Part shown: positions 10,196-54,233 of the stretch, piece by piece | How the letters are laid out: every line of letters begins with the position of its first letter | Position numbering within the stretch: position 1 is the stretch's first letter | Source: Escherichia coli | GTDB lineage: Bacteria > Pseudomonadota > Gammaproteobacteria > Enterobacterales > Enterobacteriaceae | DNA length: 64,000 bases | Strand: one strand, 5' to 3' | Assembly (NCBI RefSeq): GCF_044647545.1 | Contig: NZ_CP172818.1 | Notes under the pieces: generated by a model | What the model saw: the letters and a program-made list of their open reading frames with translations, nothing else | The model's database searches: none | What the model was told of the DNA's origin: nothing | Position numbers and translations under genes: made by a program

Positions 10196-10205
10196 GGTAC
10201 GGAGA

Positions 10206-10721: not shown

Positions 10722-10723
10722 TA

Positions 10724-11597: not shown

Positions 11598-11674
11598 GCG
11601 CCCTTAGCTCAGTTGGATAGAGCAACGACCTTCTAAGTCGTGGGCCGCAGGTTCGAATCCTGCAGGGCGCGCCA
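11598..11674 (+). tRNA. argU: tRNA-Arg (anticodon UCU), ending in CCA
   Basis: 77-nt sequence GCGCCCTTAGCTCAGTTGGATAGAGCAACGACCTTCTAAGTCGTGGGCCGCAGGTTCGAATCCTGCAGGGCGCGCCA; cloverleaf-compatible; recognised argU. Confidence 0.95.
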
Positions 11675-11689
11675 TTACAATTCAATCAG

Positions 11690-12853: not shown

Positions 12854-12972
12854 TTTCTTTCCTCTGTTATGCCATCACCCGCGCTCACCTGGACAGTATG
12901 CAGCGGAGACTGAAGCGCCGCAATGCAGGCTTGCCGTGTTGTGAGGTACCCGGATATTATCGTGAGGATGCG

Positions 12973-13311
12973 TCATCGCCATTGCTCCCCAAATACAAAA
13001 CCAATTTCAGCCAGTGCCTCGTCCATTTTTTCGATGAACTCCGGCACCATCTCGTCAAAACTCGCCATGTACTTTTCATCCCGCTCAACCACGACATAAT
13101 GCAGTCCTTCACGCTTCATACGCGGGTCATAGTTGGCAAAGTACCAGGCATCTTTTCGTGTCACCCACATGCTGTACTGCACCTGGGCCATGTAAGCCGA
13201 CTTTATGGCCTCGAAACCACCGAGCCGGAACTTCATGAAATCCCGGGAGGTACGAGTATTGCCGGAAGCGCGGGCTGTATCCGGATGCAGAGTCTTATCC
13301 GTGGAAATCAA
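12973..13311 (-). pseudogene. exoD: lambda exonuclease (Exo) C-terminal fragment
   Basis: 112-aa ORF whose sequence ([50 protein letters not shown]...GFVFGEQWR) corresponds to the C-terminal part of lambda Exo only. Confidence 0.7.
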
Positions 13312-13349
13312 ACGCGCACTACTGGCTGGTTACCAACCTGTATCAGAAC

Positions 13350-13562
13350 ATGCGGGCCAATGCGTTGACTGACGCGGAATTACGGCGCAAGGCTGCCGAT
13401 GAACTGTCCTGTATGACCGCACGAATTAACCGTGGTGAGGCTATACCTGAACCAGTAAAACAACTTCCTGTCATGGGCGGTAGACCTCTAAATCGTGCAC
13501 AGGCTCTGGCGAAGATCGCAGAAATCAAAGCTAAGTTTGGGCTGAAAGGAGCAAGGGTATGA
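13350..13562 (+). pseudogene. peaD: lambda replication protein P C-terminal fragment
   Basis: 70-aa ORF ending ...AEIKAKFGLKGARV, matching the end of lambda P; no N-terminal part present. Confidence 0.6.
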
Positions 13563-13716
13563 CGGGCAAAGAGGCAATTATTCATTACCTGGGGACTCAT
13601 AAGAAATTCTGTGCGCAGGACGTTGCCGCGGTAACAGGCGCAACGGTAATCTGATCTTACCCAGCAATAGTGGACACGCGGCTAAGTGAGTAAACTCTCA
13701 GTCAGAGGTGACTCAC

Positions 13717-14016
13717 ATGACAAAAACAGTATCAACCAGTAAAAAACCCCGTAAACAGCATTCGCCTGAATTTCGCAGTGAAGCCCTGAAGCTTGCTGAA
13801 CGCATCGGTGTTACTGCCGCAGCCCGTGAACTCAGCCTGTATGAATCACAACTCTACAACTGGCGCAGTAAACAGCAAAATCAGCAGACGTCTTCTGAAC
13901 GTGAACTGGAGATGTCTACCGAGATTGCACGTCTCAAACGCCAGCTGGCAGAACGGGATGAAGAGCTGGCTATCCTCCAAAAGGCCGCGACATACTTCGC
14001 GAAGCGCCTGAAATGA
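13717..14016 (+). CDS. insE: IS3 OrfA (transposase N-terminal, helix-turn-helix)
   Basis: 99 aa from [15 protein letters not shown]; recognised IS3 OrfA. Confidence 0.88.
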
Positions 14017-14879
14017 AGTATGTCTTTATTGAAAAACATCAGGCTGAGTTCAGCATCAAAGCAATGTGCCGCGTGCTCCGGGTGGCCCGCAGCGGCTGGT
14101 ATACGTGGTGTCAGCGGCGGACAAGGATAAGCACGCGTCAGCAGTTCCGCCAACACTGCGACAGCGTTGTCCTCGCGGCTTTTACCCGGTCAAAACAGCG
14201 TTACGGTGCCCCACGCCTGACGGATGAACTGCGTGCTCAGGGTTACCCCTTTAACGTAAAAACCGTGGCGGCAAGCCTGCGCCGTCAGGGACTGAGGGCA
14301 AAGGCCTCCCGGAAGTTCAGCCCGGTCAGCTACCGCGCACACGGCCTGCCTGTGTCAGAAAATCTGTTGGAGCAGGATTTTTACGCCAGTGGCCCGAACC
14401 AGAAGTGGGCAGGAGACATCACGTACTTACGTACAGATGAAGGCTGGCTGTATCTGGCAGTGGTCATTGACCTGTGGTCACGTGCCGTTATTGGCTGGTC
14501 AATGTCGCCACGCATGACGGCGCAACTGGCCTGCGATGCCCTGCAGATGGCGCTGTGGCGGCGTAAGAGGCCCCGGAACGTTATCGTTCACACGGACCGT
14601 GGAGGCCAGTACTGTTCAGCAGATTATCAGGCGCAACTGAAGCGGCATAATCTGCGTGGAAGTATGAGCGCAAAAGGTTGCTGCTACGATAATGCCTGCG
14701 TGGAAAGCTTCTTTCATTCGCTGAAAGTGGAATGTATCCATGGAGAACACTTTATCAGCCGGGAAATAATGCGGGCAACGGTGTTTAATTATATCGAATG
14801 TGATTACAATCGGTGGCGGCGGCACAGTTGGTGTGGCGGCCTCAGTCCGGAACAATTTGAAAACAAGAACCTCGCTTAG
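14013..14879 (+). CDS. insF: IS3 OrfB transposase (DDE catalytic domain; normally made as an OrfAB fusion by -1 frameshift)
   Basis: 288-aa ORF overlapping insE; recognised IS3 OrfB. Confidence 0.88.
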
Positions 14880-15189
14880 GCCTGTGTCCATATTACGTGG
14901 GTAGGATCAACCAGCATAAATCAGGCTGCGGCTAAAATGGCACGGGCAGGTCTTCTGGCTATCGAAGGTAAGGTCTGGCGAACGGTGTATTACCGGTTTG
15001 CTACCAGAGAAGAACGGGAAGGAAAGGTGAGCACGAATCTGATTTTTAAGGAGTGTCGCCAGAGTGCCGCGATGAAACGGGTATTGAGGGTATATAAAAG
15101 AACATCAATGGGTACACAATGATGAAACAGGTGAGTTGAGTTCAAACTGTAGTACAATTCTCTCCAGTTTGAACAGGAAAGAATATTCT

Positions 15190-15522
15190 ATGAACCCTTA
15201 TATTTATCTTGGTGGTGCAATACTTGCAGAGGTCATTGGTACAACCTTAATGAAGTTTTCAGAAGGTTTTACACGGTTATGGCCATCTGTTGGTACAATT
15301 ATTTGTTATTGTGCATCATTCTGGTTATTAGCTCAGACGCTGGCTTATATTCCTACAGGGATTGCTTATGCTATCTGGTCAGGAGTCGGTATTGTCCTGA
15401 TTAGCTTACTGTCATGGGGACTTTTCGGCCAACGGCTGGACCTGCCAGCCATTATAGGCATGATGTTGATTTGTGCCGGTGTGTTGGTTATTAATTTATT
15501 GTCACGAAGCACACCACATTAA
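15190..15522 (+). CDS. emrE: small multidrug resistance efflux transporter EmrE
   Basis: 110 aa from MNPYIYLGGAILAEVIGTTLMK, four transmembrane helices, conserved Glu in the first helix. Confidence 0.9.
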   Translation: MNPYIYLGGAILAEVIGTTLMKFSEGFTRLWPSVGTIICYCASFWLLAQTLAYIPTGIAYAIWSGVGIVLISLLSWGLFGQRLDLPAIIGMMLICAGVLVINLLSRSTPH

Positions 15523-15553
15523 AAATAATTTGTTTCTAAACGACTAAAATATG

Positions 15554-15586
15554 GAGGCTCTTATATTTATATGAGCCTCGTTTTAT
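15554..15586 (+). terminator. candidate rho-independent terminator after emrE
   Basis: GAGGCTC / GAGCCTC stem with AT-rich loop followed by GTTTTATGCTTTTT. Confidence 0.45.
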
Positions 15587-15778
15587 GCTTTTTGTTAATG
15601 TCTTTATTTTTTTATGTATTCTTTTGTGCTTTCAAGATTATGGCGTAAGAAAATTGCAATACGATTATTGTTGTATATTCAAGATAATGTGACCTTAATT
15701 GTCTTTTTAAATAAAAATTAAACAAAAATTATATCCCACCACTAAGGTTTATAAAAGCATACGTTAGCAGGTGTCACC

Positions 15779-17305
15779 ATGAAAAAAGCCATAGCATATA
15801 TGCGATTTTCATCACCAGGTCAGATGTCTGGCGACTCATTAAACCGACAGAGAAGACTTATTGCTGAATGGTTAAAGGTAAATAGTGATTATTATCTTGA
15901 TACCATAACATATGAAGATTTAGGATTAAGTGCATTCAAAGGAAAGCATGCACAATCAGGAGCTTTTTCGGAATTTTTAGATGCTATAGAGCATGGTTAT
16001 ATATTGCCAGGAACTACATTGTTAGTTGAAAGTCTGGACAGACTTTCAAGAGAAAAAGTCGGTGAAGCGATTGAACGTCTGAAATTGATTTTGAATCACG
16101 GTATTGATGTTATAACTCTTTGCGACAATACAGTCTATAATATTGACTCTTTGAATGAGCCATATTCATTAATAAAAGCCATACTTATAGCACAAAGGGC
16201 AAATGAAGAAAGCGAGATAAAGTCAAGTCGGGTTAAATTATCATGGAAGAAAAAACGGCAGGATGCACTGGAATCAGGTACGATTATGACGGCGTCTTGT
16301 CCGAGATGGCTCTCCTTAGATGACAAAAGAACGGCTTTTGTTCCAGACCCCGACAGGGTGAAAACTATTGAGCTAATTTTTAAACTCAGGATGGAAAGGC
16401 GCTCATTGAATGCAATAGCCAAGTATTTAAATGATCATGCTGTAAAGAATTTCTCAGGAAAAGAAAGTGCATGGGGACCTTCTGTAATTGAAAAATTATT
16501 AGCGAATAAAGCTCTGATAGGTATATGCGTACCTTCATATCGTGCAAGAGGTAAAGGAATAAGTGAAATCGCTGGCTATTATCCCAGAGTCATATCAGAT
16601 GATTTGTTTTACGCTGTACAGGAAATTCGGTTGGCACCTTTTGGTATTAGCAATAGTAGCAAAAATCCTATGTTGATAAATCTACTTCGAACAGTTATGA
16701 AGTGCGAGGCTTGTGGTAATACCATGATTGTTCATGCGGTATCTGGAAGTTTGCATGGCTATTATGTTTGTCCGATGAGAAGACTGCATCGATGTGACAG
16801 GCCATCAATAAAGAGAGATTTGGTTGATTATAATATCATTAATGAGTTGCTTTTTAATTGTAGTAAAATCCAACCAGTTGAAAACAAGAAAGATGCTAAT
16901 GAAACTTTAGAGTTGAAAATTATTGAGCTCCAGATGAAAATTAATAATTTAATTGCTGCATTATCTGTTGCGCCTGAAGTTACCGCTATAGCAGAAAAAA
17001 TCAGAGTATTAGATAAGGAATTACGAAGGGCTTCTGTATCATTAAAAACTTTGAAGAGTAAAGCGGTGAGTTCACTTGGTGATTTTCATGCTATTGACTT
17101 AACCAGTAAAAATGGGCGAGAGCTATGTCGTACACTTGCCTATAAAACATTCGAAAAAATCATAATCAATACAGATAATAAAACCTGTGATATCTATTTT
17201 ATGAATGGCATTGTTTTTAAACACTATCCTTTAATGAAAACAATATCCGCCCAGCAGGCGATAAGTACTCTCAAATATATGGTTGATGGTGAGGTTTATT
17301 TTTGA
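15779..17305 (+). CDS. ybcK: large serine recombinase family protein
   Basis: 508-aa ORF; N-terminal resolvase-like catalytic motif (AYMRFSSPGQ), central recombinase domain, Cys-rich zinc ribbon (CEACGN...CPMRRLHRCD), C-terminal coiled-coil-like region. Confidence 0.85.
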   Translation: MKKAIAYMRFSSPGQMSGDSLNRQRRLIAEWLKVNSDYYLDTITYEDLGLSAFKGKHAQSGAFSEFLDAIEHGYILPGTTLLVESLDRLSREKVGEAIERLKLILNHGIDVITLCDNTVYNIDSLNEPYSLIKAILIAQRANEESEIKSSRVKLSWKKKRQDALESGTIMTASCPRWLSLDDKRTAFVPDPDRVKTIELIFKLRMERRSLNAIAKYLNDHAVKNFSGKESAWGPSVIEKLLANKALIGICVPSYRARGKGISEIAGYYPRVISDDLFYAVQEIRLAPFGISNSSKNPMLINLLRTVMKCEACGNTMIVHAVSGSLHGYYVCPMRRLHRCDRPSIKRDLVDYNIINELLFNCSKIQPVENKKDANETLELKIIELQMKINNLIAALSVAPEVTAIAEKIRVLDKELRRASVSLKTLKSKAVSSLGDFHAIDLTSKNGRELCRTLAYKTFEKIIINTDNKTCDIYFMNGIVFKHYPLMKTISAQQAISTLKYMVDGEVYF

Positions 17306-17499
17306 GTAATAATCTTTTTTACGTCGTGCTATAGTAAGAAAGTGCAAGACAGAATTAATTATCTTTGACGAAACTTAATGGGTAATTACTTTGTTTGCTC
17401 CCACAAGCGAGTTTTGTACGGCTGTATTGGGGTAGTAAATGAGCTATACAATCTTAATCATTTGTTAGGTGAGAACTCTTGGTCGCAGATTCAAATACT

Positions 17500-17549
17500 G
17501 AAAATACGTGACAAATTATTATGAGCAAAATGGTGTATGTCACGTATTT
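17500..17549. repeat. 13-bp perfect inverted repeat pair (AAAATACGTGACA ... TGTCACGTATTTT) separated by 24 bp
   Basis: Seen directly in the ybcK-ybcL intergenic region. Confidence 0.6.
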
Positions 17550-17762
17550 TGAATGGTAGGTTAAAAAATAACACCGACTTTCGTAGGTATTACTAATAAT
17601 AAAGCAGAGTTTTTAGATAGTATCAATGTGCTTTGTGTATATTGTGGCAAATAATTGGGTTGCTGAGGGGTAGAATGTGATTGCTTTTGCATGAACACTT
17701 TATGCATAATGAGATAAAGGAATATCAAATAAAGAACGATAGGTCATAACAAAGAGGTTTTT

Positions 17763-18312
17763 ATGAAAACACTTATCGTTTCAACTGTATTGGCATTCAT
17801 AACATTTTCTGCGCAGGCTGCAGCATTTCAGGTCACTAGTAATGAAATAAAAACAGGAGAGCAACTTACAACGTCTCATGTCTTTCTCGATTTGGGTGTG
17901 AAGGTGGTAATACATCGCCCTCATTAACCTGGTCTGGTGTTCCTGAAGGTACCAAAAGCTTTGCCGTAACTGTATATGATCCAGATGCACCTACAGGCAG
18001 TGGTTGGTGGCATTGGACTGTTGTTAATATTCCAGCAACAGTAACATATTTTCCGTTGATGCAGGGAGACGTGATGGAACAAAACTGCCGACTGGTGCTG
18101 TTCAAGGCCGAAATGATTTTGGCTATGCTGGGTTTGGTGGCGCATGTCCTCCTAAAGGAGATAAACCACATCATTACCAGTTTAAAGTATGGGCTCTAAA
18201 AACTGAAAAGATTCCTGTAGATTCTAACTCCAGCGGAGCGTTAGTTGGTTATATGCTTAATGCTAATAAAATCGCAACCGCTGAGATAACACCAGTTTAT
18301 GAGATAAAGTAG
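17763..18312 (+). pseudogene. ybcL: periplasmic PEBP/UPF0098 family protein with two frame breaks in this assembly
   Basis: Signal peptide MKTLIVSTVLAFITFSAQA; the protein is recovered across three frames with shifts near 17884 (T-run) and 18054 (C-run); corrected length would be 183 aa. Confidence 0.7.
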
Positions 18313-18321
18313 GGTGAGAGT

Positions 18322-19119
18322 ATGCTGGCAAGAGGTAAGACTAACTTAAAGATCGAAGAAATACGGATGCATAAACATCATGAGATTCATAGGGTTAAGC
18401 CTCTTATGCCAGCTTTGTGTCGTATCCGTCAGGGAAAGAAAGTTATCAATTGGGAGACGCATACTTTAACTGTTGATAATAATCAAATAATATTATTTCC
18501 TTGTGGTTATGAATTTTATATTGAGAATTATCCTGAAGCAGGGCTTTATCTTGCAGAAATGCTTTACTTACCCATTGATTTAATTGAGAGTTTCCAAAAA
18601 CTTTATACGGTAACTGATCAAATACGTAACAAAACAAGTTTCTTTTTACCTCAGAATCCTGAGTTAATATATTGTTGGGAGCAACTAAAAACATCTGTTT
18701 CCCGAGGCTTCTCAACTAAAATTCAGGAGCACTTAGCAATGGGCGTTCTACTTTCGTTAGGAGTGAATCATGTTAATCATTTACTTTTATCATATAGTAA
18801 ACAATCATTGATAAGTCGTTGTTATAACCTGCTGCTATCCGAACCCGGCACAAAATGGACAGCAAACAAGGTTGCTCGATATCTCTACATTTCTGTTTCT
18901 ACATTACATCGCCGTCTAGCAAGCGAGGGGGTAAGTTTCCAAAGTATACTGGACGATGTGAGGTTAAATAATGCGTTGTCTGCTATACAAACGACGGTAA
19001 AACCTATAAGCGAGATTGCCAGAGAAAATGGTTATAAGTGTCCTTCTCGTTTTACTGAAAGATTTCATAATCGTTTTAATATAACACCAAGAGAGATAAG
19101 AAAAGCTTCCAGAGAGTAA
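18322..19119 (+). CDS. ybcM: AraC-family transcriptional regulator
   Basis: 265-aa ORF with C-terminal AraC-type helix-turn-helix. Confidence 0.85.
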
Positions 19120-19235
19120 AAGTGTTTTAAGAAGGAGCAATTCTATCGATTTTGATTTGCGATAATCAACTCGCCATAATCATGTCATCGGAGCCTGAAC
19201 AACTCCGGTGACTTCTGCGCTAAACGGGGACGTTT

Positions 19236-19337
19236 ATGCGCACACACAATCCAAACTCTCTTCTCCCTCCACAGATGCAGAAATGCACCTGCGATATATT
19301 GTATCCAGCGTTTGACCTCTGCGGAGGTGAAGCGTGA
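19236..19337 (+). CDS. ylcH: small prophage ORF (33 aa)
   Basis: Short [36 protein letters not shown] ending 4 bp into ybcN; small size, low certainty. Confidence 0.35.
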
Positions 19338-19789
19338 ATCTCCCACAAGATGGCATCAAATTACATCGCGGTAACTTCACCGCTATCGGTCGGCAGATCC
19401 AGCCTTATCTGGAGGAGGGCAAATGCTTTCGCATGGTGCTTAAACCGTGGCGTGAGAAACGCAGTCTTTCCCAGAATGCACTCAGCCACATGTGGTACAG
19501 CGAAATCAGTGAATACCTCATCAGCAGGGGTAAAACGTTCGCTACTCCAGCTTGGGTAAAAGATGCTCTCAAACACACATATCTCGGTTATGAAACCAAA
19601 GACCTGGTTGATGTCGTAACCGGTGATATCACCACTATCCAGTCGTTACGCCATACCTCCGATCTTGATACCGGAGAGATGTATGTCTTCCTGTGTAAGG
19701 TTGAAGCCTGGGCGGTGAATATTGGCTGCCACCTGACTATTCCGCAGAGCTGCGAGTTCCAGCTGCTCCGCGACAAGCAGGAGGCGTAA
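19334..19789 (+). CDS. ybcN: NinB-like prophage protein
   Basis: 151-aa ORF with apparent GTG start; position ahead of ninE/rusA in a lambda nin-like region. Confidence 0.8.
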
Positions 19790-19959
19790 TGGCTACACCG
19801 CTTATTCGTGTCATGAACGGACACATCTACAGAGTACCAGATCGTCGTAAGCGTAAACCGGAGCTGAAGCCTTCCGAAATACCAACACTGCTCGGATATA
19901 CCGCCAGCCTGGTTGATAAAAAATGGTTGCGACTGGCAGCAAGGAGGAATCATGGCTGA
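19789..19959 (+). CDS. ninE: NinE-family prophage protein (56 aa)
   Basis: [26 protein letters not shown]... overlapping ybcN stop; below ORF-track size cutoff. Confidence 0.6.
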   Translation: MATPLIRVMNGHIYRVPDRRKRKPELKPSEIPTLLGYTASLVDKKWLRLAARRNHG

Positions 19960-20242
19960 TTTGAGAAAAGCAGCGCGTAGTCGGGAATGCCAGGTAAGAA
20001 TCCCTGGCGTATGTAATGGCAACCCTGAAACGTCTGTACTGGCACATATCCGGCTGACTGGATTGTGCGGCACCGGTACCAAACCGCCAGACCTGATTGC
20101 CACCATTGCATGTTCTGCCTGCCACGACGAAATCGACCGCCGCACACATTTTGTCGATGCTGCATATGCAAAAGAATGCGCGCTGGAAGGTATGGCGAGA
20201 ACACAGGTTATCTGGCTGAAAGAGGGGGTTATTAAGGCGTGA
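19952..20242 (+). CDS. ybcO: prophage protein YbcO (Cys-rich, 96 aa)
   Basis: 96 aa from [10 protein letters not shown]; conserved nin-region position. Confidence 0.75.
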
Positions 20243-20601
20243 ATACCTACAGCATCACATTACCCTGGCCTCCGAGCAATAATCGCTATTACCGCCATAA
20301 TCGCGGGCGCACGCACGTCAGCGCAGAGGGGCAGGCATACCGCGATAACGTCGCCCGAATCATTAAAAACGCAATGCTGGATATCGGCCTGGCTATGCCT
20401 GTGAAAATCCGCATTGAGTGCCACATGCCGGATCGCCGTCGCCGTGACCTGGATAATCTGCAAAAAGCCGCTTTTGACGCACTCACTAAAGCAGGTTTCT
20501 GGCTGGATGATGCTCAGGTCGTTGATTACCGCGTTGTGAAGATGCCTGTTACCAAAGGTGGGAGGCTGGAACTGACCATCACCGAAATGGGGAATGAATG
20601 A
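20239..20601 (+). CDS. rusA: Holliday junction resolvase RusA
   Basis: 120-aa [21 protein letters not shown]...; recognised RusA. Confidence 0.9.
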
Positions 20602-20738
20602 TGTTTGAGTTTTATATGGCAGAACGTCTTCGCCACCGCTGGGGGCGTCTGCGCTTATATCGTTTCCCCGGTTCTGTTTTGACCGATTACCGAATACTGA
20701 AGAATTACGCCAAAACCCTGACAGGAGCAGGAGTATGA
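20598..20738 (+). CDS. ylcG: small prophage ORF (46 aa)
   Basis: [26 protein letters not shown]... overlapping rusA stop; verified codon by codon. Confidence 0.45.
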
Positions 20739-20823
20739 AGTCAGAGATAACAATCAACTAATACTGTTTCGTTGATTTTTGCTTGTAATTGGCGTTCTGG
20801 TCTGATTTTTGTGGAGTAAGTTG

Positions 20824-21207
20824 ATGCGTGATATTCAGATGGTTCTTGAGCGTTGGGGAGCGTGGGCGGCTAATAATCATGAAGATGTGACCTGGTCGTC
20901 CATTGCCGCCGGTTTTAAGGGATTAATTACTTCAAAAGTAAAATCTCGCCCACAATGTTGTGACGATGACGCGATGATCATTTGCGGGTGCATGGCCCGT
21001 CTGAAAAAGAACAACAGCGATTTGCATGATTTATTGGTGGACTATTATGTCGGCGGCATGACTTTTATGGCGCTTGCACGTAAGCATGGGCGATCTGATT
21101 GTTGGGTTGGCAGGATGCTTCAGAAAGCTGAGGGCGTAGTGGAGGGTATGCTGATGGTGTTGGATCTCCGATTGGAGATGGATGTCGTTGTTAATAACTC
21201 TAATTAA
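20824..21207 (+). CDS. quuD: Q-family late-gene antiterminator
   Basis: 127 aa from [18 protein letters not shown]; immediately upstream of a hairpin-rich regulatory region. Confidence 0.8.
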
Positions 21208-21229
21208 TATGCCAATTGTTTACTAAAAA

Positions 21230-21390
21230 TTATTAAAAATGGGGCGTTGAGACGCCCCCAAAAATAAAGGGTAATATATAACAGAAGGTTTATATAGTTA
21301 GAAGCAAGGTTGTGCTTCTAAAGGAAGTGGCTTGAGGGAGCCACTTATATGTTGGGGAGGCAACGCCTCCCGCAACATATCTTTTTCGTA
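21230..21390 (+). promoter_or_regulatory. late regulatory region downstream of Q (candidate pR'/qut and short-transcript terminator)
   Basis: Several GC hairpins (GGGGCG..CGCCCC; AAGTGGC..GCCACTT; GGGAGGC AAC GCCTCCC followed by ...CTTTTT). Confidence 0.3.
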
Positions 21391-21458
21391 ATCAGATTAG
21401 AACTGGTAAACCAGACCTACAGCAACGATGTCATCAGTGCTTACACCGAGTGCTTTAG

Positions 21459-22653
<1,195 letters not shown>

Positions 22654-23683
22654 TTAGTGAAGTCATTTTTGTCAAGCAGGTTGATTTTGTAATCAACGAA
22701 AGTAGACATATTTTTGTTGAAGTAATAGGTTGCACCTACATCAACATATTTGACTAAGTCCTGATCGCCCCATACTCCAAGATCCTTACCTTTAGATTGC
22801 AGGTAAGCAACGGACGGACGCAGACCGAAATCGAACTGATATTGTGCAACAGCTTCGAAGTTTTGGGCTTTATTAGCAACGAAGTGATCAGCAAATACAG
22901 TCATATTCTGGGTTTCAGAATAGGTAGTGGCCAGGTAAATGTTGTTAGCGTCATATTTCAGACCTGCGGCCCAAACTTCTGCATTTTTACCGGAAGCAAA
23001 TACTTCAGGAAGAACTTTCCCTGCATTAACTTGAGTGTCGGTACGATCAGATTTCGCATAAGTTGCACCGATACCGAATCCTTCGTATTCATAGGTAGCA
23101 GAGAAACCGAAGCCATCACCGTTACCTTCAGTGTAGTTATCGAAATCGCTACGATCGTTTTTGCCTTGGTACTGAATCGCAAAATCAAGACCATCAACCA
23201 GGCCAAGAAATCATAGTTACGGTAGGTTGCAACACCGTTGGTACGACCATTCATGAAGTTGTCAGCGGAAGCCCAGGAATCGCCACCCCATTCAACTAAC
23301 ATATCGGTATAAGCTGCGGCATCATAAGCAACACCGTAGTTACGGCCATAGTCAAATGACCACTCGTTATATTTCAAACCGGCGAAGGTTAAACGGGTTT
23401 TTTCCTGGTTTTCACCTTCGGGCTTGCTGGCGTCGAGGTTGTATTCAAACTGACCAAAACCAGTCAGTTCGCTGGTGATTTGGGTTTCACCTTTGAAGCC
23501 AAGACGGGCATAAGTAGTATCACCATCATCTGCATCATTAGAGGAGAAGTAGTGCTTAGCATTAACTTTCCCGTACAGATCCAGCTTGTTACTGTCTTTA
23601 TTATAAATTTCAGCTGCCTGAGCAGACATCGCCATTAGTACTGATGCAGCTACAGCAGAAATTGCCACTGTTAATTTTTTCAT
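22654..23683 (-). pseudogene. nmpC: OmpC-family outer-membrane porin, truncated at the 3' end by IS5 and carrying an internal single-base frame break near 23205
   Basis: Signal peptide [23 protein letters not shown]; porin sequence reads YRNYDF then shifts frame, then continues in frame to the IS5 junction (last residues EGANKSLI come from IS5). Confidence 0.8.
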
Positions 23684-24258
23684 CGTGAGCCCTTTTTTTG
23701 AACTATTATTAAAAAATGATGTCACTGCGCGATAAATATTCATCTAATCAATGTGATTATTTCAAGATGTAAGTTTTGGTTTCTCGTTTGATTTGTGAAG
23801 TAGATCTCTATTTTTATCTGAACTTTTTTCTATCGAATCCTATTCATGGCTCTTGGCTGAATAAAAATAAATCTATTAGCCAATTTATATTAACGGCTGT
23901 TATTTATAAGTGCTCTATAATTTGAAGGTTCAATTTAAACCGGCTAAAAATAACACTGGAAATTATTTTTTGGTTATTTGTTGAGATTTGCTTATGTATT
24001 TGTAGTGGTGTTTTCAATACTCGGTAGCATTCTCTCAAATATCATTTAGTGGTTTACGTACGTAAAAAATTGGTTATGCTGTTAAGAGTGGTTACTTCGT
24101 CACACAGCTTAAACCCGCCGTCGAGCGGGTTTTTCCATTTTTTGAGTCTCGATATTAGCTGATAACCCAATACCTGAGTTATTCACTGACTCCGAGTCTG
24201 TTACGTTTCGTAGTATTCCCTCAATTTACACCCATCCGTTATTTGCGGAGGTGAGGCT

Positions 24259-24474
24259 ATGAAATCCATGGATAAGTTAACAACGGGCATTGCCTACGGC
24301 ACCTCCGCAGGCAGTGCTGGCTACTGGTTTTTACAGCTGCTCGATAAAGTCACGCCCTCACAGTGGGCAGCAATAGGTGTGCTGGGTAGCTTGGTATTTG
24401 GCCTGCTGACGTACCTGACAAACCTTTATTTCAAGATTAAAGAAGATAAGCGCAAGGCTGCGAGAGGTGAATAA
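24259..24474 (+). CDS. essD: phage holin (71 aa)
   Basis: Two hydrophobic segments and charged C-terminus; first gene of the lysis cassette. Confidence 0.85.
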
Positions 24475-24971
24475 TGCCTCCATCATTACGAAAAGCCGTT
24501 GCTGCTGCTATTGGTGGCGGAGCAATTGCTATAGCATCAGTGTTAATCACTGGCCCAAGTGGTAACGATGGTCTGGAAGGTGTCAGCTACATACCATACA
24601 AAGATATCGTTGGCGTATGGACTGTATGTCACGGGCATACAGGAAAAGACATCATTCCCGGTAAAACGTATACCGAAGCAGAATGCAAAGCCCTCCTGAA
24701 TAAAGACCTTGCCACGGTAGCCAGACAAATTAACCCGTACATCAAAGTCGATATACCGGAAACAACGCGCGGCGCTCTTTACTCGTTCGTCTATAACGTG
24801 GGCGCAGGCAATTTCAGAACATCTACTCTTCTTCGCAAAATAAACCAGGGCGATATCAAGGGCGCATGTGACCAGCTACGTCGCTGGGCATACGCTGGCG
24901 GTAAGCAATGGAAAGGCCTGATGACTCGTCGTGAGATTGAGCGTGAGGTCTGTTTGTGGGGGCAACAATGA
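24474..24971 (+). CDS. rrrD: phage endolysin (lysozyme family)
   Basis: 165-aa ORF overlapping holin stop; N-terminal signal-anchor-like segment. Confidence 0.85.
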
Positions 24972-25342
24972 GCAGAGTCACCGCGATTATCTCCGCTCTG
25001 GTTATCTGCATCATCGTCTGCCTGTCATGGGCTGTTAATCATTACCGTGATAACGCCATCGCCTACAAAGAACAGCGCGATAAAAAAGTCAGTGAGCTGA
25101 AGCAGGCGACCGCCACCATTACTGACATGCAGCAGCGCCAGCGTGATGCTGATGCACTCGATGCTAAATACACGAAGGAGTTAGCTGATGCGAAAGCTGA
25201 AAATGATGCTCTTCGGCGCAAGCTTGATAATGGTGGTCGGGTGCTCGTCAAAGGAAAATGCCCTGTGCCATCCTCAGCCGAAACCTCCAGCGCCTCCGGC
25301 ATGGGCAATGATGCCACCGTCGAACTCAAAGACCGAGAATAA
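24968..25342 (+). CDS. rzpD: Rz-like inner-membrane spanin subunit (reading frame as it stands in this sequence)
   Basis: N-terminal transmembrane segment [21 protein letters not shown], coiled-coil-like region; frame terminates at 25342 while the following Rz-like C-terminal peptide lies in the +1 frame. Confidence 0.6.
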
Positions 25343-25445
25343 AAACTATCCAGTTAGCGACGAATATCTGGACCCAATTATCGCGACCAAAACAGCACTG
25401 AGAACGCTTCAGGAATTCATCAGGACGCAATGTCCTTCGAGATAG
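25188..25445 (+). CDS. rzoD: Rz1-like outer-membrane lipoprotein spanin subunit, +1 frame inside and extending beyond the Rz frame
   Basis: [12 protein letters not shown] lipobox, proline-rich PKPPAPPAW; true C-terminus uncertain. Confidence 0.45.
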
Positions 25446-25602
25446 CGATTATTTTACTCATCATTCCCTTCACATCTGGCTCTGTAGACAGTTCACTTCT
25501 GAAATCCAATAAACATCTCATTCTGATGCTTGATATTGAGCATTTTGCGCGCGGTAAGGGGCTGCGTTGAGATAAGAACCAGTAAAAATAAACCAGGATT
25601 TA

Positions 25603-25625
25603 GCCTCGCATTCGCGGGGCTTTTT
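25603..25625 (+). terminator. candidate rho-independent terminator of the lysis operon
   Basis: GCCTCGC ATTC GCGGGGC hairpin (7-bp stem with one G-U pair) followed by TTTTT. Confidence 0.5.
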
Positions 25626-25709
25626 ATTGCCATTACAAAAGCCACTTCCTACAGAGTGGCTTTGATAATGGTTTATACCCTACACGGGATAACTTAACTG
25701 ATATCCCTT

Positions 25710-25874
25710 TTAAAGGATAAAGGTATTCAAGCCTGACACATCATGCGCTGTATCGTCGCCGTATTCCCGTATTAACAGAGACCGTAGCCCGACGGGGAAC
25801 TCCTTCTGCGCGAGTGTGCGGGAATAATCAAAAACGATGCACACCGGGGTTACCGGGTACACATATTTCATCAT
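25710..25874 (-). CDS. hypothetical small ORF (54 aa)
   Basis: ORF MMKYVYPVTPVCIVFDYSRTLAQKEFPVGL...; no recognisable family; below ORF-track cutoff. Confidence 0.2.
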   Translation of the reverse strand: MMKYVYPVTPVCIVFDYSRTLAQKEFPVGLRSLLIREYGDDTAHDVSGLNTFIL

Positions 25875-25919
25875 GCCAGCGAGTCCGGTTCTGGCACGGA
25901 AGAAACCGGACGTTATGAT

Positions 25920-26330
25920 TTAGTGCGGAAATATTTGTGTAGTGTTCTGAATGTTCTCAGTAAAGAGTAATGAATTATCAAAGGTATAGTAATACCTTTT
26001 GTTTTCGTGGATATTTGTAATCCATCTGAAAACCCCTGCTGTAGCAAGATTTTTCCTGTATTCGTAAAATGATAACTCTCCTGATTTGAATCCTTTTAAG
26101 GTGGCTTCTATAAGGCATTTATTTTTTGAAAATCTTACATTTACAACCTTACCCTGTCCTTTTATTAAAACCGTATTATCGTTTTCAAGAACAAGATGAA
26201 TATTCTCTGTAGCTAAATAGTAAATGTAATGTGAGACATTGTGACGTTTTAGTTCAGAATAAAACCAGTGATAGTTTAAATTATTTCGCACTTTATCGAA
26301 TATTTGTTTAAAAATGGCAACCTGAGCCAT
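25920..26330 (-). CDS. ybcV: prophage protein YbcV (DUF1398-like)
   Basis: 136 aa from [31 protein letters not shown]. Confidence 0.75.
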
Positions 26331-26662
26331 TGTGGTACCTTCCATGTGATATGAGGGGCGTAGTCTGCACGATTATCTAAATTGCTTCAATCTGGTCTGA
26401 TTTTTGAGAATTTAAATAAGCAGATTAGAAGGGAAACGCTGAAATTCATGTTGTTTTCAATAAACAAAGAATGGACGAAAAATCATAAAGACAATACTGC
26501 CAGGACAGGTTAAAAACTATCTTAATACACATTCGATGGTTAGATGTTTAATCATGTATAGAACATCATACCTAAAATACTAAAAGCAAAAGAAACGAAG
26601 GAATCCTCTATAATTAATCTATCAAAGAAGAGAATACGTATCTGACTAAGAGACTAATCAAC

Positions 26663-26896
26663 TCAGCAATCCTCGTATTTAGGGAATACAATACGTCCAG
26701 TGTCACTCTTTTCTTTGTTTGCTTCAGGAGAAACTCTTTTTTCTGAGCACAGTCTCCGGCGGCAGGCTTCAATGACCCAGGCTGAGAAATTCCCGGACCC
26801 TTTTTGATCAAGAGCGATGTTAATTTGTTCAATCATTTGGTTAGGAAAGCGGATGTTGCGGATTGTTGTTCTGCGGGTTCTGTTCTTCGTTGACAT
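26663..26896 (-). CDS. ylcI: small DNA-binding-like prophage protein (YlcI/DUF3950-like)
   Basis: 77-aa ORF MSTKNRTRRTTIRNIRFPNQMIEQINIALDQKGSGNFSAWVIEACRRRL; start codon uncertain. Confidence 0.5.
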   Translation of the reverse strand: MSTKNRTRRTTIRNIRFPNQMIEQINIALDQKGSGNFSAWVIEACRRRLCSEKRVSPEANKEKSDTGRIVFPKYEDC

Positions 26897-27095
26897 GAGG
26901 TTGTCCCGTATTTAGTGTCGCTGATTTGTATTGTCTGAAGTTGTTTTTACGTTAAGTTGATGCAGATCAATTAATATGATACCTGCGTCATAATTGATTA
27001 TTTGACGTGGTTTGATGGCGTAGATGCACGTTGTGACATGCAGATGATAATTATTATCATTTTGCGGGTCCTTTCCGGCGATCCGACAGGTTACG

Positions 27096-27107
27096 GGGCG
27101 GCGACCT
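27096..27107 (+). other. lambda-type cosN cohesive-end sequence GGGCGGCGACCT
   Basis: Exact lambda cohesive-end 12-mer preceded by GATCCGACAGGTTACG; CGTTTCC/GGAAACG repeats (terminase small-subunit binding elements) lie between it and nohD. Confidence 0.8.
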
Positions 27108-27284
27108 CGCGGGTTTTCGCTATTTATGAAAAATTTCCGGTTTAAGGCGTTTCCGTTCTTCTTCGTCATAACTTAATGTTTTTATTTAAAATACCCTCTG
27201 AAAAGAAAGGAAACGACAGGTGCTGAAAGCGAGCTTTTTGGCCTCTGTCGTTTCCTTTCTCTGTTTTTGTCCGTGGAATGAACA

Positions 27285-27830
27285 ATGGAAGTCAACAAAA
27301 AGCAGCTGGCTGACATTTTCGGTGCGAGTATCCGTACCATTCAGAACTGGCAGGAACAGGGAATGCCCGTTCTGCGAGGCGGTGGCAAGGGTAATGAGGT
27401 GCTTTATGACTCTGCCGCCGTCATAAAATGGTATGCCGAAAGGGATGCTGAAATTGAGAACGAAAAGCTGCGCCGGGAGGTTGAAGAACTGCGGCAGGCC
27501 AGCGAGGCAGATCTCCAGCCAGGAACTATTGAGTACGAACGCCATCGACTTACGCGTGCGCAGGCCGACGCACAGGAACTGAAGAATGCCAGAGACTCCG
27601 CTGAAGTGGTGGAAACCGCATTCTGTACTTTCGTGTTGTCGCGGATCGCAGGTGAAATTGCCAGTATTCTCGACGGGCTCCCCCTGTCGGTGCAGCGGCG
27701 TTTTCCGGAACTGGAAAACCGACATGTTGATTTCCTGAAACGGGATATTATCAAAGCCATGAACAAAGCAGCCGCGCTGGATGAACTGATACCGGGGTTG
27801 CTGAGTGAATATATCGAACAGTCAGGTTAA
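27285..27830 (+). CDS. nohD: terminase small subunit (lambda Nu1 homologue)
   Basis: 181-aa [49 protein letters not shown]...; recognised Nu1 sequence. Confidence 0.9.
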
Positions 27831-28548
27831 CAGGCTGCGGCATTTTGTCCGCGCCGGGCTTCGCTCACTGTTCAGGCCGGAGCCACAGACCGCCGTTGAA
27901 TGGGCGGATGCTAATTACTATCTCCCGAAAGAATCCGCATACCAGGAAGGGCGCTGGGAAACACTGCCCTTTCAGCGGGCCATCATGAATGCGATGGGCA
28001 GCGACTACATCCGTGAGGTGAATGTGGTGAAGTCTGCCCGTGTCGGTTATTCCAAAATGCTGCTGGGTGTTTATGCCTACTTTATAGAGCATAAGCAGCG
28101 CAACACCCTTATTCCAGCTGGCTTCGTGGCTGTTTTCAACAGTGATGAGTCATCGTGGCATCTCGTTGAAGATCATCGGGGTAAAACGGTTTATGACGTA
28201 GCGTCAGGGGACGCGTTATTTATTTCTGAACTCGGTCCGTTACCGGAAAATGTTACCTGGTTATCGCCGGAAGGGGAGTTTCAGAAGTGGAACGGTACAG
28301 CCTGGGTGAAAGATGCAGAAGCAGAAAAACTGTTCCGGATTCGGGAGGCGGAAGAAACAAAAAACAGCCTGATGCAGGTAGCCAGTGAGCATATTGCGCC
28401 ACTTCAGGATGCTGTAGATCTGGAAATCGCAACGGAGGAAGAAACCTCATTGCTGGAAGCCTGGAAAAAATATCGGGTGTTGCTGAACCGTGTTGATACA
28501 TCAACTGCACCTGATATTGAGTGGCCTACGAACCCTGTCAGGGAGTAA
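27805..28548 (+). pseudogene. tfaD: fusion of terminase large-subunit N-terminal fragment to a tail-fibre assembly C-terminal fragment
   Basis: N-terminal ~100 aa match lambda gpA start ([28 protein letters not shown]...), C-terminal part matches Tfa (...[28 protein letters not shown]...). Confidence 0.75.
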
Positions 28549-28602
28549 TCATTGGGATTATGCCGCAGCACGTCTTAAGCAAGAACATGCTGCGGTTGGA
28601 TG

Positions 28603-29187
28603 CTATTTTTTTCCTGAAGCGGAAAACATTACTACAGTACCTTGAACCTTGGTTTTAACATTCTCGAAATGCTCTGAGAGTATATGTGTTAAGCCTTCTT
28701 CGGAATCTTTTGTGTTTGAAAAGATGCCTTTCTGATTGTAAATGCGCATCAGTTTTTGACCGAAGCTATTGTGCACAACTCCATCGCCAAGAATTGTGGC
28801 TCCGTATAGAGTTCCATCGTCAGTTAAGGCCTGCGCCGCATTGCGTATTACACAGCTTTTTGTAGATATATTTCCAGGCAGGCAGTGAAGAAGGTAAGAC
28901 ATGGAAATGGAATCAAATTGACCATGTAACGCCGCGGGATAAGGTTCAAAAACATCATGGCTAATTTTATGTTTAATTTTTGATTCCCCAGCCCTTGTAG
29001 ATGCCGCGTTCAGGCTAGCTTCGTTCAAATCCATTAAAGATATCAGACTACTCTCAGGTACGTGAGTAAGGTAAAACCCAGTTCCAACACCAATATCCAG
29101 ATGGTTGTTACCTAAATGTTCCAGAAAGTGTGGAAGAAGGTGTTCCTTTGTAGGACATCCCCATGCAAGCCGATTTGATACTCCCAA
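28603..29187 (-). CDS. ybcY: SAM-dependent methyltransferase-like protein
   Basis: 194-aa ORF with glycine-rich nucleotide-binding motif (LDIGVGTG); may be a truncated gene. Confidence 0.6.
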   Translation of the reverse strand: MGVSNRLAWGCPTKEHLLPHFLEHLGNNHLDIGVGTGFYLTHVPESSLISLMDLNEASLNAASTRAGESKIKHKISHDVFEPYPAALHGQFDSISMSYLLHCLPGNISTKSCVIRNAAQALTDDGTLYGATILGDGVVHNSFGQKLMRIYNQKGIFSNTKDSEEGLTHILSEHFENVKTKVQGTVVMFSASGKK

Positions 29188-29325
29188 AACCCACCAGTCA
29201 TAAAGCTTTAGGGTAAGTGGTGTGTAAATTCTAGCCCCATCATCTGTGTTTTTTTATTAATTTCACCATGTTATAGTTTTATTTGTGAATTAAATCAATT
29301 ATGGCAATGAATTACAAGGGGTTAA

Positions 29326-29586
29326 ATGCTGCCGCAGCATAGCGATATTGAAATAGCCTGGTATGCTTCAATACAGCAGGAGCCGAATGGCTGGAAGACC
29401 GTCACCACACAGTTCTACATCCAGGAATTCAGTGAGTATATTGCGCCACTGCAGGATGCTGTAGATCTGGAAATCGCAACGGAGGAAGAAAACTCGTTGC
29501 TGGAAGCCTGGAAAAAGTATCGGGTGCTGCTAAACCGTGTGGACACTTCCGTAGCACCAGATATCGAGTGGCTTATTCAACCATAA
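29326..29586 (+). pseudogene. tfaX: tail-fibre assembly protein C-terminal fragment
   Basis: 86-aa ORF whose C-terminal 50 aa closely match the C-terminus of the tfaD fusion. Confidence 0.6.
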
Positions 29587-30131
29587 TAAACAGTATGTAT
29601 ATCATAGGTTATTAATTGTGAGTTTTTTCGGTGTGTTATTTGTTTGTTTGATGTTATGCTTTTGCGCCCCAAAAGGTTGTTTAGATGTATTTTATCAATT
29701 GATTTTCAATGTCGTTTAATAAAGAAAAATTAAGCAAGCTGGATGTTGGTTTTTTGTTAATTGAATGGTTCTAATAATGTTTTTTTACTGTTGTTGAATG
29801 TGACTTGATAAGAAATGCAAGTAAAAATGATACTCTTTTTATTTTAAATTCAAACGGTTGACATATATATAGCAAGAGGTTTCAGGTGCGTTGTAGTGAG
29901 TTTATGTTAATAAAAAGTATAGTAAGCGTTGAAAAATGTAACTTTGAAATACGTTAGAATAAAAAACAATATACATATAATAATTTAATCTTAAATGAAA
30001 TTTATTAAAATTTGCAAACTATAATTTTGTGTATAAAAATATAAATGCACATCATCCTGATTATGATTGTGTATTTAATTGGTTGTTATTTGACTGCTAT
30101 CAACTTGTTTTAATTTTATGATAGGTGCAAG

Positions 30132-30881
30132 ATGGATTATGTTTGCTCCGTAGTTTTCATCTGTCAATCATTTGATTTAATTATAAACAGGAGAGTTATC
30201 TCGTTCAAAAAAAATTCATTGTTTATTGTAAGCGACAAAATTAGAAGGGAGTTACCAGTATGCCCCTCTAAACTAAGAATTGTTGATATAGATAAGAAAA
30301 CATGTTTATCCTTTTTTATCGACGTGAATAATGAGCTGCCTGGCAAATTTACTCTTGATAAGAATGGCTATATTGCTGAAGAGGAACCTCCATTATCGCT
30401 TGTTTTTTCTCTGTTTGAAGGGATTAAAATAGCAGACTCACACTCCCTTTGGTTAAAAGAAAGACTATGTATATCCTTACTTGCCATGTTCAAAAAACGC
30501 GAAAGTGTAAATTCATTTATACTAACAAATATAAATACATTTACCTGTAAAATTACTGGAATAATCAGTTTTAATATTGAGCGGCAATGGCATTTAAAAG
30601 ATATTGCGGAATTGATTTATACGAGTGAAAGTTTAATAAAAAAAAGATTAAGGGATGAAGGAACGTCATTTACTGAAATATTGAGAGATACTAGGATGAG
30701 GTATGCAAAAAAACTCATAACTTCAAACTCTTATTCTATCAATGTCGTAGCCCAGAAATGTGGCTATAACAGTACTTCATATTTCATATGTGCATTTAAA
30801 GATTATTATGGTGTCACGCCATCTCATTATTTTGAGAAAATAATCGGCGTCACAGATGGAATAAACAAAACAATTGACTGA
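30132..30881 (+). CDS. appY: AraC-family transcriptional activator AppY
   Basis: 249-aa ORF with C-terminal AraC helix-turn-helix; AT-rich flanks. Confidence 0.9.
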
Positions 30882-31129
30882 TAATGTTTATTACAAGTTG
30901 CCTACATGTTAATTATAATATTATACAGCGTTTTTTTGATGTGATATTCTGGAACCATTAATTTGTAATTGGGTTGCTGTCGCCTATTTTATACATGCTA
31001 TAATTGATGGTTTTCTATGTGATTTAGTTAATAACCTTCTGGGTTTATTTTAAGGGTTAATTGTTACATTGAAATGGCTAGTTATTCCCCGGGGCGATTG
31101 TCACCTCGGGGAAATTTTAGTTGGCGTTC

Positions 31130-32083
31130 TTAAAATGTGTACTTAAGACCAGCAGTAGTGATGAAGTTATAGTTTTCTATGCCTGCACCATTTTTGCTGT
31201 AGTCTGAAGTGTTATCATTGTGATCATAAAGTGAAGTATTACCTTTTTTATTCGTAACCCGATTCCATGCGCCTTCAACATAAACTTTTGCGTTAGGTGT
31301 TACGTAATAACCTGCATTGACTGCAACAGAATAGTAATTTTGGTCTTTGACTTTACTGCGATAAGTGATTCTTTTTCCTGGGTCATAGTGCTCATCGTTA
31401 TCAGATGCTTCCACCCAGCCGCTGTATTTAAATGTGCCACCTAGCTCAAAATCTTCATAACGATAACTTCCAGTCAAGCCAATGTAGGGCATTTTAAAAC
31501 GTTGTTTGTAGCCGATTGCTCTTTCTCCATTCGGGAAGGAGCCGATATCATCTCTGAATCCCTCCTCAGAACTGTAGATATAGGAACCACCTCTGGCTGT
31601 AAAGCTATAACGGCTTTCCTGATATCCGGCCATGAGTCCCAGGCGGTAATTGGGTTCGTTGAGGAGCCAGCCTTTGATATTCAGATCAAATTCGTTGGCA
31701 TAATTGAGTTGTGTATCAGGGTGCCTACTTTCATCTGTCCAGGTTCCGGGGTTACTGGAATCCATCCAGTCCTGATCGACCATATTGCCACCTCGGCTGC
31801 CGAGAGTAGTCCAGCCCGCAGCCCCAATAGATATCTGGGGCATCAAATCCCAATTAATTGCACCTTTAATAATTGCAGCGTTATTGAATTTCCAGTCGAG
31901 TTGACTGACTTTTCGGCCTCCTTCTTCGGCTAGATAAACACGCTCTTTTGTTTTTCCGCTCAGAGTTCCAAGACTAATGTCCGCATTTATGTTGTCAGGA
32001 GTAAACGATAAAGTCTCGGTAGAAGCAAAAGAGCTGATCGCAATAGGGGTTGTCAGGACTATTCCCAGAAGTTTCGCCCGCAT
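31130..32083 (-). CDS. ompT: outer-membrane aspartyl protease OmpT (omptin)
   Basis: 317-aa ORF; recognised omptin sequence. Confidence 0.93.
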   Translation of the reverse strand: MRAKLLGIVLTTPIAISSFASTETLSFTPDNINADISLGTLSGKTKERVYLAEEGGRKVSQLDWKFNNAAIIKGAINWDLMPQISIGAAGWTTLGSRGGNMVDQDWMDSSNPGTWTDESRHPDTQLNYANEFDLNIKGWLLNEPNYRLGLMAGYQESRYSFTARGGSYIYSSEEGFRDDIGSFPNGERAIGYKQRFKMPYIGLTGSYRYEDFELGGTFKYSGWVEASDNDEHYDPGKRITYRSKVKDQNYYSVAVNAGYYVTPNAKVYVEGAWNRVTNKKGNTSLYDHNDNTSDYSKNGAGIENYNFITTAGLKYTF

Positions 32084-32506
32084 AAAAGTTCTCCATTCAA
32101 TCGTTTTAATGATTGAATATGTATTTTTTATATCTAACTTAATGAGTCAATTACATATTGCTCCACTGTTTATATTTTGTTTAGTATTGAATGATTATCA
32201 CAATGCGCTATCTGTTTTTGGTTTAATTATCTGTTATTGTTTCATATTGCGGTTTTACTGTGTGGTTTTTTTATGCTTTTGTGGTGCTTTTATCTATTTA
32301 AGTGCCATGCCTTTAGAGGCATATAAGCGAAAATAGCATGAGGTTTATCCTCAATTACTATGTTTTTTAGTACAAAAAAGAGGGACAAAACTGAGACACA
32401 TAAGGCCTCACAATGGCTTGCAAGGCTTTACATGTTTTGAGGTAGTGGGACGTGTGAGCGCAGAGATGGCGCGGTAAGTTGTTGACTTAAAATGTCGTTC
32501 TAGGAA

Positions 32507-32551
32507 CTTCTAAGTCGTGGGCCGCAGGTTCGAATCCTGCAGGGCGCGCCA
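32507..32551 (+). repeat. 45-bp direct repeat of the argU 3' end marking the prophage right attachment site
   Basis: Identical to 11630..11674 (CTTCTAAGTCGTGGGCCGCAGGTTCGAATCCTGCAGGGCGCGCCA). Confidence 0.9.
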
Positions 32552-32595
32552 TTTCTTCTTCATTTAATCCCGTCTTATCCGTTCCGCTTTGCTCT

Positions 32596-54044: not shown

Positions 54045-54233
54045 ATGAAGCCCCAGGACGATATTTCTATCAACCCTGGGGCTGCCACTCCAAACCCGAA
54101 CAATTTGGATGGTAGTCCCTTCTTCGCATGGAGGCAATATAAACATGCTGACGAAATATGCCCTTGTGGCAGTCATAGTGCTGTGTTTAACGGTGCTGGG
54201 ATTTACGCTTCTGGTCGGCGACTCGCTGTGTGA
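54045..54233 (+). CDS. mokE: mok-like overlapping reading frame of the hok locus
   Basis: 62-aa ORF overlapping the hok start in another frame, as in hok/mok/sok loci. Confidence 0.35.

Follow-up and report, generated by a model that had tools for sequence, protein, structure and literature searches.

A complete lambda-type cos site and Nu1 gene, alike to those of a free phage, in the cryptic prophage DLP12 of a non-K-12 Escherichia coli

The cryptic prophage DLP12 of a non-K-12 Escherichia coli strain holds a lambda-type cos site that looks intact, followed by a full-length homologue of the small terminase gene Nu1 and by the remains of the large terminase gene A. We found it in a window of 64,000 nucleotides (the whole stretch of DNA that was analysed; NCBI RefSeq assembly GCF_044647545.1, contig NZ_CP172818.1). 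In our reading, which we hold to be probable, this cos-Nu1-A' remnant would be a competent site for the initiation of packaging, packaging from its one cos would be abortive, and the break made there would stimulate recombination with phages.

The lambda cohesive-end 12-mer, GGGCGGCGACCT, has one exact occurrence in the window, on the + strand at 27096-27107, and the only other match with at most one mismatch lies inside IS5 on the opposite strand. A chance 12-mer was ruled out: the site sits within 1.4 kb of sequence that is 98-99.5% identical to lambda-like phages, and for window positions 26701-28112 the identity is 99.5% with phage Chlobot and about 98.3% with lambda. The original prediction had taken cos to be apparently intact from the exact 12-mer and its lambda-like flanks, and had named divergence from lambda cosB or cosQ on proper alignment as evidence against it. 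When the region was aligned to lambda NC_001416 with the ends joined, only three differences were observed from -30 to +190, namely a T to C change at -17 (27079), a T to A change at +38 (27133) and a single missing G at lambda bp 138 (27232), and there was no divergence in cosQ, R3, I1, R2 or R1. All three differences from the reference lambda also occur in Chlobot, which is viable. Judged by sequence, all the checkable subsites match lambda, and the prediction of an intact site was upheld.

The complete cos site occupies 27066-27260 on the + strand, and its subsites match those of lambda in sequence and in spacing. At its left end, the cosQ heptamer GGGTCCT (27066-27072, + strand; lambda 48473-48479) is the sole occurrence of this 7-mer in the window and lies at -30 to -24, as in lambda; cosQ is needed for the termination of packaging at the downstream cos (PMC4669245). 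The partly symmetric nicking site cosN, defined as the 12-bp cohesive end with two flanking base pairs on each side (PMC9026076), covers 27094-27109 on the + strand and matches lambda at 16/16 positions. In cosB, R3, the critical TerS binding site, lies at 27145-27160 on the + strand (lambda bp 50-65, with the contact segment, bp 55-63, at 27150-27158); it is identical to lambda and its spacing from cosN, which is a required one, is unchanged (R3 coordinates and required spacing from PMC9026076). No insertions or deletions relative to lambda were found between cosN and R2. The IHF-bend region I1, between R3 and R2 (27161-27203, + strand), is identical to lambda over the whole interval and contains, on the minus strand at 27174-27186, an IHF-consensus-like 13-mer with one mismatch. 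R2 (27204-27219, minus strand) is inverted with respect to R3 and R1 and is the exact reverse complement of R1, the accessory TerS site (27245-27260, + strand), which is an exact copy of the 16-mer CTGTCGTTTCCTTTCT; both are lambda-identical, and the CGTTTCC/GGAAACG repeats that had been noticed downstream of the 12-mer turned out to be these cosB R sites. The cohesive end, cosQ, the order and spacing of cosB and the adjacency of the TerS gene are all those of a lambda-type cos with a complex cosB, a class to which the locus appears to belong, and it is probably cuttable by a lambda-specificity terminase. An Rfam scan gave no match at the cos locus.

The missing G was considered as a possible defect in cosB spacing and was ruled out as such, as it is positioned between R2 and R1 and not between cosN and R3. 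DE3, Chlobot and all the E. coli copies that we examined lack this G as well, so that its loss is no defect; the extra G at bp 138 of NC_001416 is probably peculiar to the reference sequence or its strain, or else a harmless polymorphism. In the reference record this extra G moves the Nu1 start from 190 to 191, and the nohD start codon, at +190 (27285), agrees with lambda's 191 once the deletion is counted.

The nohD gene (27285-27830, + strand) encodes a full-length terminase small subunit of 181 aa. Its product is the same protein as lambda gpNu1 (NP_040580), with 181/181 residues identical and two synonymous nucleotide changes, at 27636 and 27749, and it spans the whole Pfam Phage_Nu1 model (PF07471, positions 1-164/164, E=2.8e-100), from the N-terminal winged HTH to the C-terminal TerL-binding region, as expected of the full-length Nu1 homologue that had been predicted. 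A scan for promoters and terminators around cos-nohD found no enrichment over shuffled sequences, and because of this it is uninformative on the expression of nohD.

The large subunit was predicted to be truncated and fused to a tail-fibre assembly fragment, and this is what we observed: an in-frame fusion ORF of 247 aa (27805-28548, + strand) joins gpA residues 1-103 (27805-28112) to a tail-fibre assembly protein, of which the C-terminal part is retained (28113-28548). The ORF is identical to gpA through residue 103 and divergent thereafter; in Pfam, only positions 3-60 of the 247 of the GpA_ATPase model are matched, while Caudo_TAP is matched at 1-130/131. A complete large terminase comprises an ATPase and an endonuclease (641 aa in lambda), and residues 1-103 are what is left of it here. 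The MG1655 annotation of the fusion is the aaaD pseudogene plus tfaD. The fusion is a deletion scar, in which the rest of A was lost, together with head and tail genes judging by the lambda gene order. Inside the Tfa-derived part there is also a full-length Rfam match to IS009 (RF02111) at 28307-28505 on the + strand; it scores 227.8 bits, where the gathering score is 117.

These genes belong to a DLP12-type defective lambdoid prophage of about 20.9 kb (11630..32553, + strand), inserted at argU, the tRNA-Arg(UCU) gene, which lies at its left end (11598-11674). A 47-bp direct repeat of the tRNA-Arg 3' end marks both ends of the prophage (attL 11630-11676, attR 32507-32553), and the gene order is collinear with that of DLP12 in MG1655 (intD...quuD-IS5/nmpC-essD-rrrD-rzpD...ylcI-nohD-aaaD/tfaD-ybcY-tfaX-appY-ompT), so that the cryptic prophage of the original prediction can be named as DLP12. 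That the window is K-12 itself was ruled out by its 97.6-98.1% identity to MG1655; among complete RefSeq E. coli genomes, the best match of this DLP12 variant does not exceed 97.7% over 6.2 kb. On the 3' side of the cos region, on the + strand, appY, ompT, envY, nfrAB, cusSRCFBA, pheP, entD, fepA, fes and entF follow, among them the ompT, cus and ent genes that had been named as flanking DNA.

Elsewhere in the prophage, an IS5 copy (21605-22621) lies in nmpC at the position of the K-12 IS5B, and that kilobase has 0 mismatches to K-12. The nmpC kilobase 23001-24000 has 105 mismatches or gaps to K-12, and the nmpC porin frame is split into two ORFs (22626-22904 and 22958-23743). The rzpD-ylcI interval (25200-26700) is non-homologous to the K-12 bor-ybcV-ybcW block, with about 30% mismatch, and within it only 25744-26400 could be aligned to K-12, at 83%. 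The rzpD ORF has 128 aa against the 153 aa of lambda Rz, a bor ORF is absent from the window's ORF list, and YlcI is the 77-aa form seen in Chlobot, the K-12 form being of 64 aa. At the sok/hokE locus (53997-54320; Rfam sok at 53997-54153), the window is without the IS186 copy that is present there in MG1655, and the K-12 alignment skips from K-12 locus-record position 10011 to 11349.

Comparison with lambda-like phages shows how close this cos is to those of free phages. Over the 231-bp core, 27060-27290, the isolated phage Chlobot (PP925838) matches it at 100%, phages Turner, PhiR11_1 and PhiR68_2 with one mismatch each, and lambda at 98.7%; identities to isolated lambda-like phages range from 95.7 to 100%. 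Over the longer stretch 27042-28112 (1,071 bp), Chlobot and the window do not differ at any base. The window thus resembles lambda and Chlobot in cosQ, cosN, R3, I1, R2 and R1, with lambda's sequence and spacing, and in its Nu1 protein; it is unlike them in that its cos is a single chromosomal copy, in having no full-length TerL, and in having no head or tail genes between A' and tfa. Being single-copy in the chromosome, the element therefore has no downstream partner cos.

With DLP12 of K-12 MG1655 (qsr'; NC_000913.3, about 580.6-582.1 kb), the window has in common the argU insertion, the gene order and the A'(codon 103)::tfa junction, and both copies have cosQ and an exact cosN 12-mer; between cos -54 and the A' junction (1,071 bp), however, 17 differences separate them. 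The K-12 copy has C53T (in R3), A73G, T85A and T102C, where the window has the lambda/Chlobot bases, and the K-12 NohD substitutions R70L, A75T and L132I are absent from the window NohD. MG1655 has a second exact lambda cosN 12-mer in its prophage Qin, upstream of nohA on the reverse strand (about 1,636,550), with a lambda-type left flank from -76 to -17 and G54A inside R3; K-12 therefore has a pair of orphan cos sites of lambda type, which lie about 1 Mb from each other and point in opposite directions. Lambda-type cos-Nu1 blocks are close to universal in E. coli: of 5,426 complete genomes, 5,063-5,290 match them, at a median of 3-4 places per genome, and about 400 have the DLP12-specific A'::tfa junction.

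Taken on its sequence, the intact cos of the window would be best explained if a phage had recently overwritten it, or if it and a phage cos shared a very recent ancestor; that selection for a host function kept it intact is less likely. The identity to Chlobot could instead reflect slow divergence from a lambda-like ancestor and not recent conversion. An inert relic must also be weighed, in which cos is never used and is intact because too little time or mutation has passed since the prophage-killing deletion ended at A codon 103. The patchiness of the prophage agrees with such a relic: the core genome around it is 2-4.6% diverged from K-12, and yet DLP12 has 0-2 differences per kb from K-12 in the bins from 12001 (int), 18001, 22001 (IS5) and 28001 (1 difference in 12001-13000 and 0 in 28001-29000), with 3-10% in the other bins. 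Because of these near-identical patches in a diverged core genome, parts of DLP12 would be young, and the pattern suggests that they moved between lineages later than the core genomes diverged. It also agrees with a relic that no host phenotype is tied to cos or nohD in the literature found.

The cos-nohD segment itself argues against a relic, and we regard that explanation as improbable. When the window, K-12 MG1655 and strain HS-01 were compared, the sequence to the right of the A' junction (28113-29200, tfaD-ybcY) showed 0 differences in 1,088 bp, whereas in cos-nohD any two of the three differed by 1.5-1.6%, with a separate haplotype for each strain; in essD-rzpD the difference was about 5%. 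Among DLP12 copies, the cos-nohD segment thus varies more than the sequence on its right, and it does so in a star-like, mosaic fashion. Diagnostic sites of the HS-01 DLP12 nohD are held in common with nohA of the MG1655 Qin prophage, and those of the window cos-nohD with Chlobot and strain PI24.

Changes in discrete tracts were observed even among sublines of K-12, which were compared from cos -1554 to +2500. OV2 is the same as MG1655 across the compared block. In CY708, 8 sites within 4 kb depart from MG1655, and all of them fall from +398 to +583; PG20180062 (O16:H48, from mouse gut) differs at 28 sites, all from -1188 to +474 and thus spanning cos, and its alleles from -76 to +53 are lambda-type; AG100 differs in a tract from -1554 to +583 and is identical elsewhere. 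The tracts across cos-nohD are likely, from their sequence, to represent gene conversion by lambdoid phages, although part of the variation could come from assembly or polishing cross-talk between the repeated cos-Nu1 copies, for instance that of Qin. The CY708 alleles match neither Qin nor the MG1655 DLP12, and the Qin cos-nohA was rejected as a donor: the CY708 and PG20180062 alleles differ from it at the diagnostic sites 54, 134, 144, 175 and 541. Because the tracts differ even among K-12 sublines, cos-nohD would be exchanging and not merely sitting in the chromosome.

Exchange of this kind was measured in K-12 by De Paepe and colleagues in 2014 (PMC3945230), and their data also stand against an inert relic. 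The homology block between DLP12 and lambda, of 3,353 bp at 98%, spans cos; lambda x DLP12 recombinants arose at about 2e-4, roughly 100-fold above Rac or Qin; and 10/19 of the sequenced junctions adjoin cos, a cluster that the authors ascribe to breaks made by terminase. Recombinant lambda phages with DLP12 R, Rz or nu1 were viable, which shows that the K-12 DLP12 nu1 works, and no excision of DLP12 upon lambda infection was seen (all PMC3945230). Even the K-12 homologue, which has more substitutions than the copy of the window, thus functions once recombined into lambda; with the identity of the 231-bp core to an isolated phage, this is strong, though indirect, comparative evidence that the cos of the window would work. 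The DLP12 cos and Nu1 and their exchange with lambda are therefore already known for K-12, and the window is another allele.

Taking into consideration the intact subsites and this published work, we propose that exchange with phages, brought about by terminase cutting, is what shaped the locus. During growth of a lambda-specificity phage, TerS (gpNu1) and IHF would assemble on R3-I1-R2, TerL would nick cosN, and the enzyme would remain on the cosB end. DNA would then be threaded into a prohead rightwards, via nohD toward ompT, nfrAB, cus, pheP and entD-fepA-fes-entF; with no second cos, termination of packaging would be impossible. The double-strand break made by terminase would stimulate homologous recombination between phage and DLP12, in a two-way exchange in which phages gain DLP12 alleles and phage alleles overwrite those of DLP12. 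That cos looks pristine is most likely due to such exchange and not to selection for a host function. In this scheme we infer the in vivo cleavage of the window's chromosomal cos, the abortive one-cos packaging and the direction of conversion; we found no published work that shows directly that terminase cuts the DLP12 cos in the chromosome, and nothing in the searchable literature on 'doc' (one-cos) particles or on terminase cutting of a cryptic chromosomal cos.

The first step of this scheme has a precedent. In lambda, cosN and cosB are enough for initiation, and terminase remains on the cosB end and translocates from there; moreover, in the Feiss assay helper terminase, acting in trans, makes efficient use of a repressed cos in the chromosome, with 1-4 virions per cell released from tandem prophages (PMC4669245). 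Initiation at the DLP12 cos by a lambda-specificity terminase would thus be very plausible. The window is like the Feiss dilysogen in having, from sequence, a chromosomal cos of lambda specificity, which could be cut by helper terminase in trans with rightward packaging (PMC4669245); it is unlike it in having one cos, whereas the assay works only with tandem dilysogens, in which the second prophage supplies a terminating cos, one genome length downstream. Cos-type PICIs are a second relative, as chromosomal elements with lambda-like cosN and cosQ that depend on a helper terminase (PMC9026076). These, however, excise, replicate, and carry rpp by an unrelated cosB that redirects TerS (PMC9026076), whereas the gene beside the window cos is Nu1 and not rpp, and its cosB is phage-type, which places the element outside this class.

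At the last step, termination, the original prediction was not supported. It had proposed that a superinfecting lambda-family phage could cut and package the locus in trans, with cosmid-like mobilisation of ompT, cus and ent. The first part is in line with the use of chromosomal lambda-type cos sites by helper terminase (PMC4669245), but a second co-oriented cos (cosQ+cosN) is required to end packaging, and protruding uncut DNA blocks the joining of tails (PMC4669245, PMC6687093). No second cos was found in the window when it was searched, at up to 3 mismatches, for the 12-mer, the 16-mer and cosQ followed by a spacer and cosN. Downstream of cos the window covers 36.9 kb, slightly less than the smallest DNA that can be packaged; lambda packages DNA of about 38-51 kb, and the lower limit is some 78% of 48.5 kb. 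K-12 served as a proxy for this strain further on, and its counterpart of +30 to +55 kb, which holds the core genes ent-fep-cstA, showed no cos-like site either. A cosmid-like unit would take a pair of co-oriented cos sites some 38-51 kb from each other, and there is none in the window or in the K-12 proxy. We do not expect cosmid-like mobilisation, because a cos phage cannot complete packaging without a second cos.

That the single DLP12 cos nevertheless lets a superinfecting lambda-family phage transduce ompT, cus and ent appreciably, in the manner of cosmids or of lateral transduction, has some arguments in its favour: the site is intact and oriented so that packaging would head to ompT-cus-ent, terminase stays on the cosB end and translocates, and helper phages package chromosomal cos-to-cos segments efficiently. 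We consider it very improbable, given that the terminal cut requires a second cos, uncut DNA bars tail attachment, and no cos-like site lies in the 36.9 kb downstream or in the K-12 +30 to +55 kb. The absence of DLP12 excision upon lambda infection (De Paepe et al., PMC3945230) also counts against it, as does a study in which lambda particles were purified from a K-12 lysogen and deep-sequenced: host reads came almost exclusively from beside the lambda attachment site, and no DLP12 signal was evident (PMC7667829). Abortive packaging and no initiation at all fit this absent signal equally well. Thus the original prediction was right about the intact cos, Nu1 and the cryptic prophage; its cosmid-like mobilisation was not supported, and it missed the prior description in K-12 (PMC3945230). 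Under our preferred reading, of initiation followed by abortive one-cos packaging, infectious transducing particles are not expected at a useful rate, because the second cos is absent.

A further possibility is that the module protects the host as an anti-phage decoy, with cos, NohD and gpA(1-103)::Tfa titrating or poisoning terminase, or with the chromosome break triggering abortive infection. The fusion ORF is in frame and retains the gpA N-terminus, which is the gpNu1-binding part of gpA, and terminase overproduction was reportedly found by Murialdo in 1988 to be lethal to rec-deficient E. coli. The sequence from 27750 to 29200 is, in addition, invariant among the three diverged strains; however, because lambda and Chlobot also have the invariant part 27750-28112, this part is uninformative on the fusion. 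K-12 has the same module and yet is the standard permissive host of lambda, lambda x DLP12 recombinants that use the DLP12 nu1 grow, and no expression or phenotype data were found for such a role. Of the explanations weighed here, we give the decoy the least credence, and we retain initiation at cos, abortive packaging and break-stimulated recombination as the reading that best fits the locus.

The finding in itself adds little, in that the DLP12 cos and its Nu1 homologue have stood in annotations for decades and K-12 work has already measured their exchange with lambda. What is new, though minor, is the base-for-base identity to Chlobot over 1,071 bp and the apparent conversion tracts across cos-nohD among DLP12 copies. 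The locus also provides a clean example of why a lone orphan cos should not count as an origin of transduction. A bolder extension, which we offer as speculation and think rather unlikely in its full form, is that the DLP12 cos-nohD is a standing recombination gateway cut by terminase and kept pristine by recurrent conversion from lambda-like phages, through which late-region alleles would be traded both ways on short, even laboratory, timescales, and that pairs of orphan co-oriented cos sites 38-51 kb apart would act as natural chromosomal 'cosmids', open to high-frequency transduction by cos phages. More broadly, a chromosomal copy indistinguishable from that of a free-living phage, together with the tract differences, supports the view that defective prophages are in active exchange with the phages that infect their hosts.
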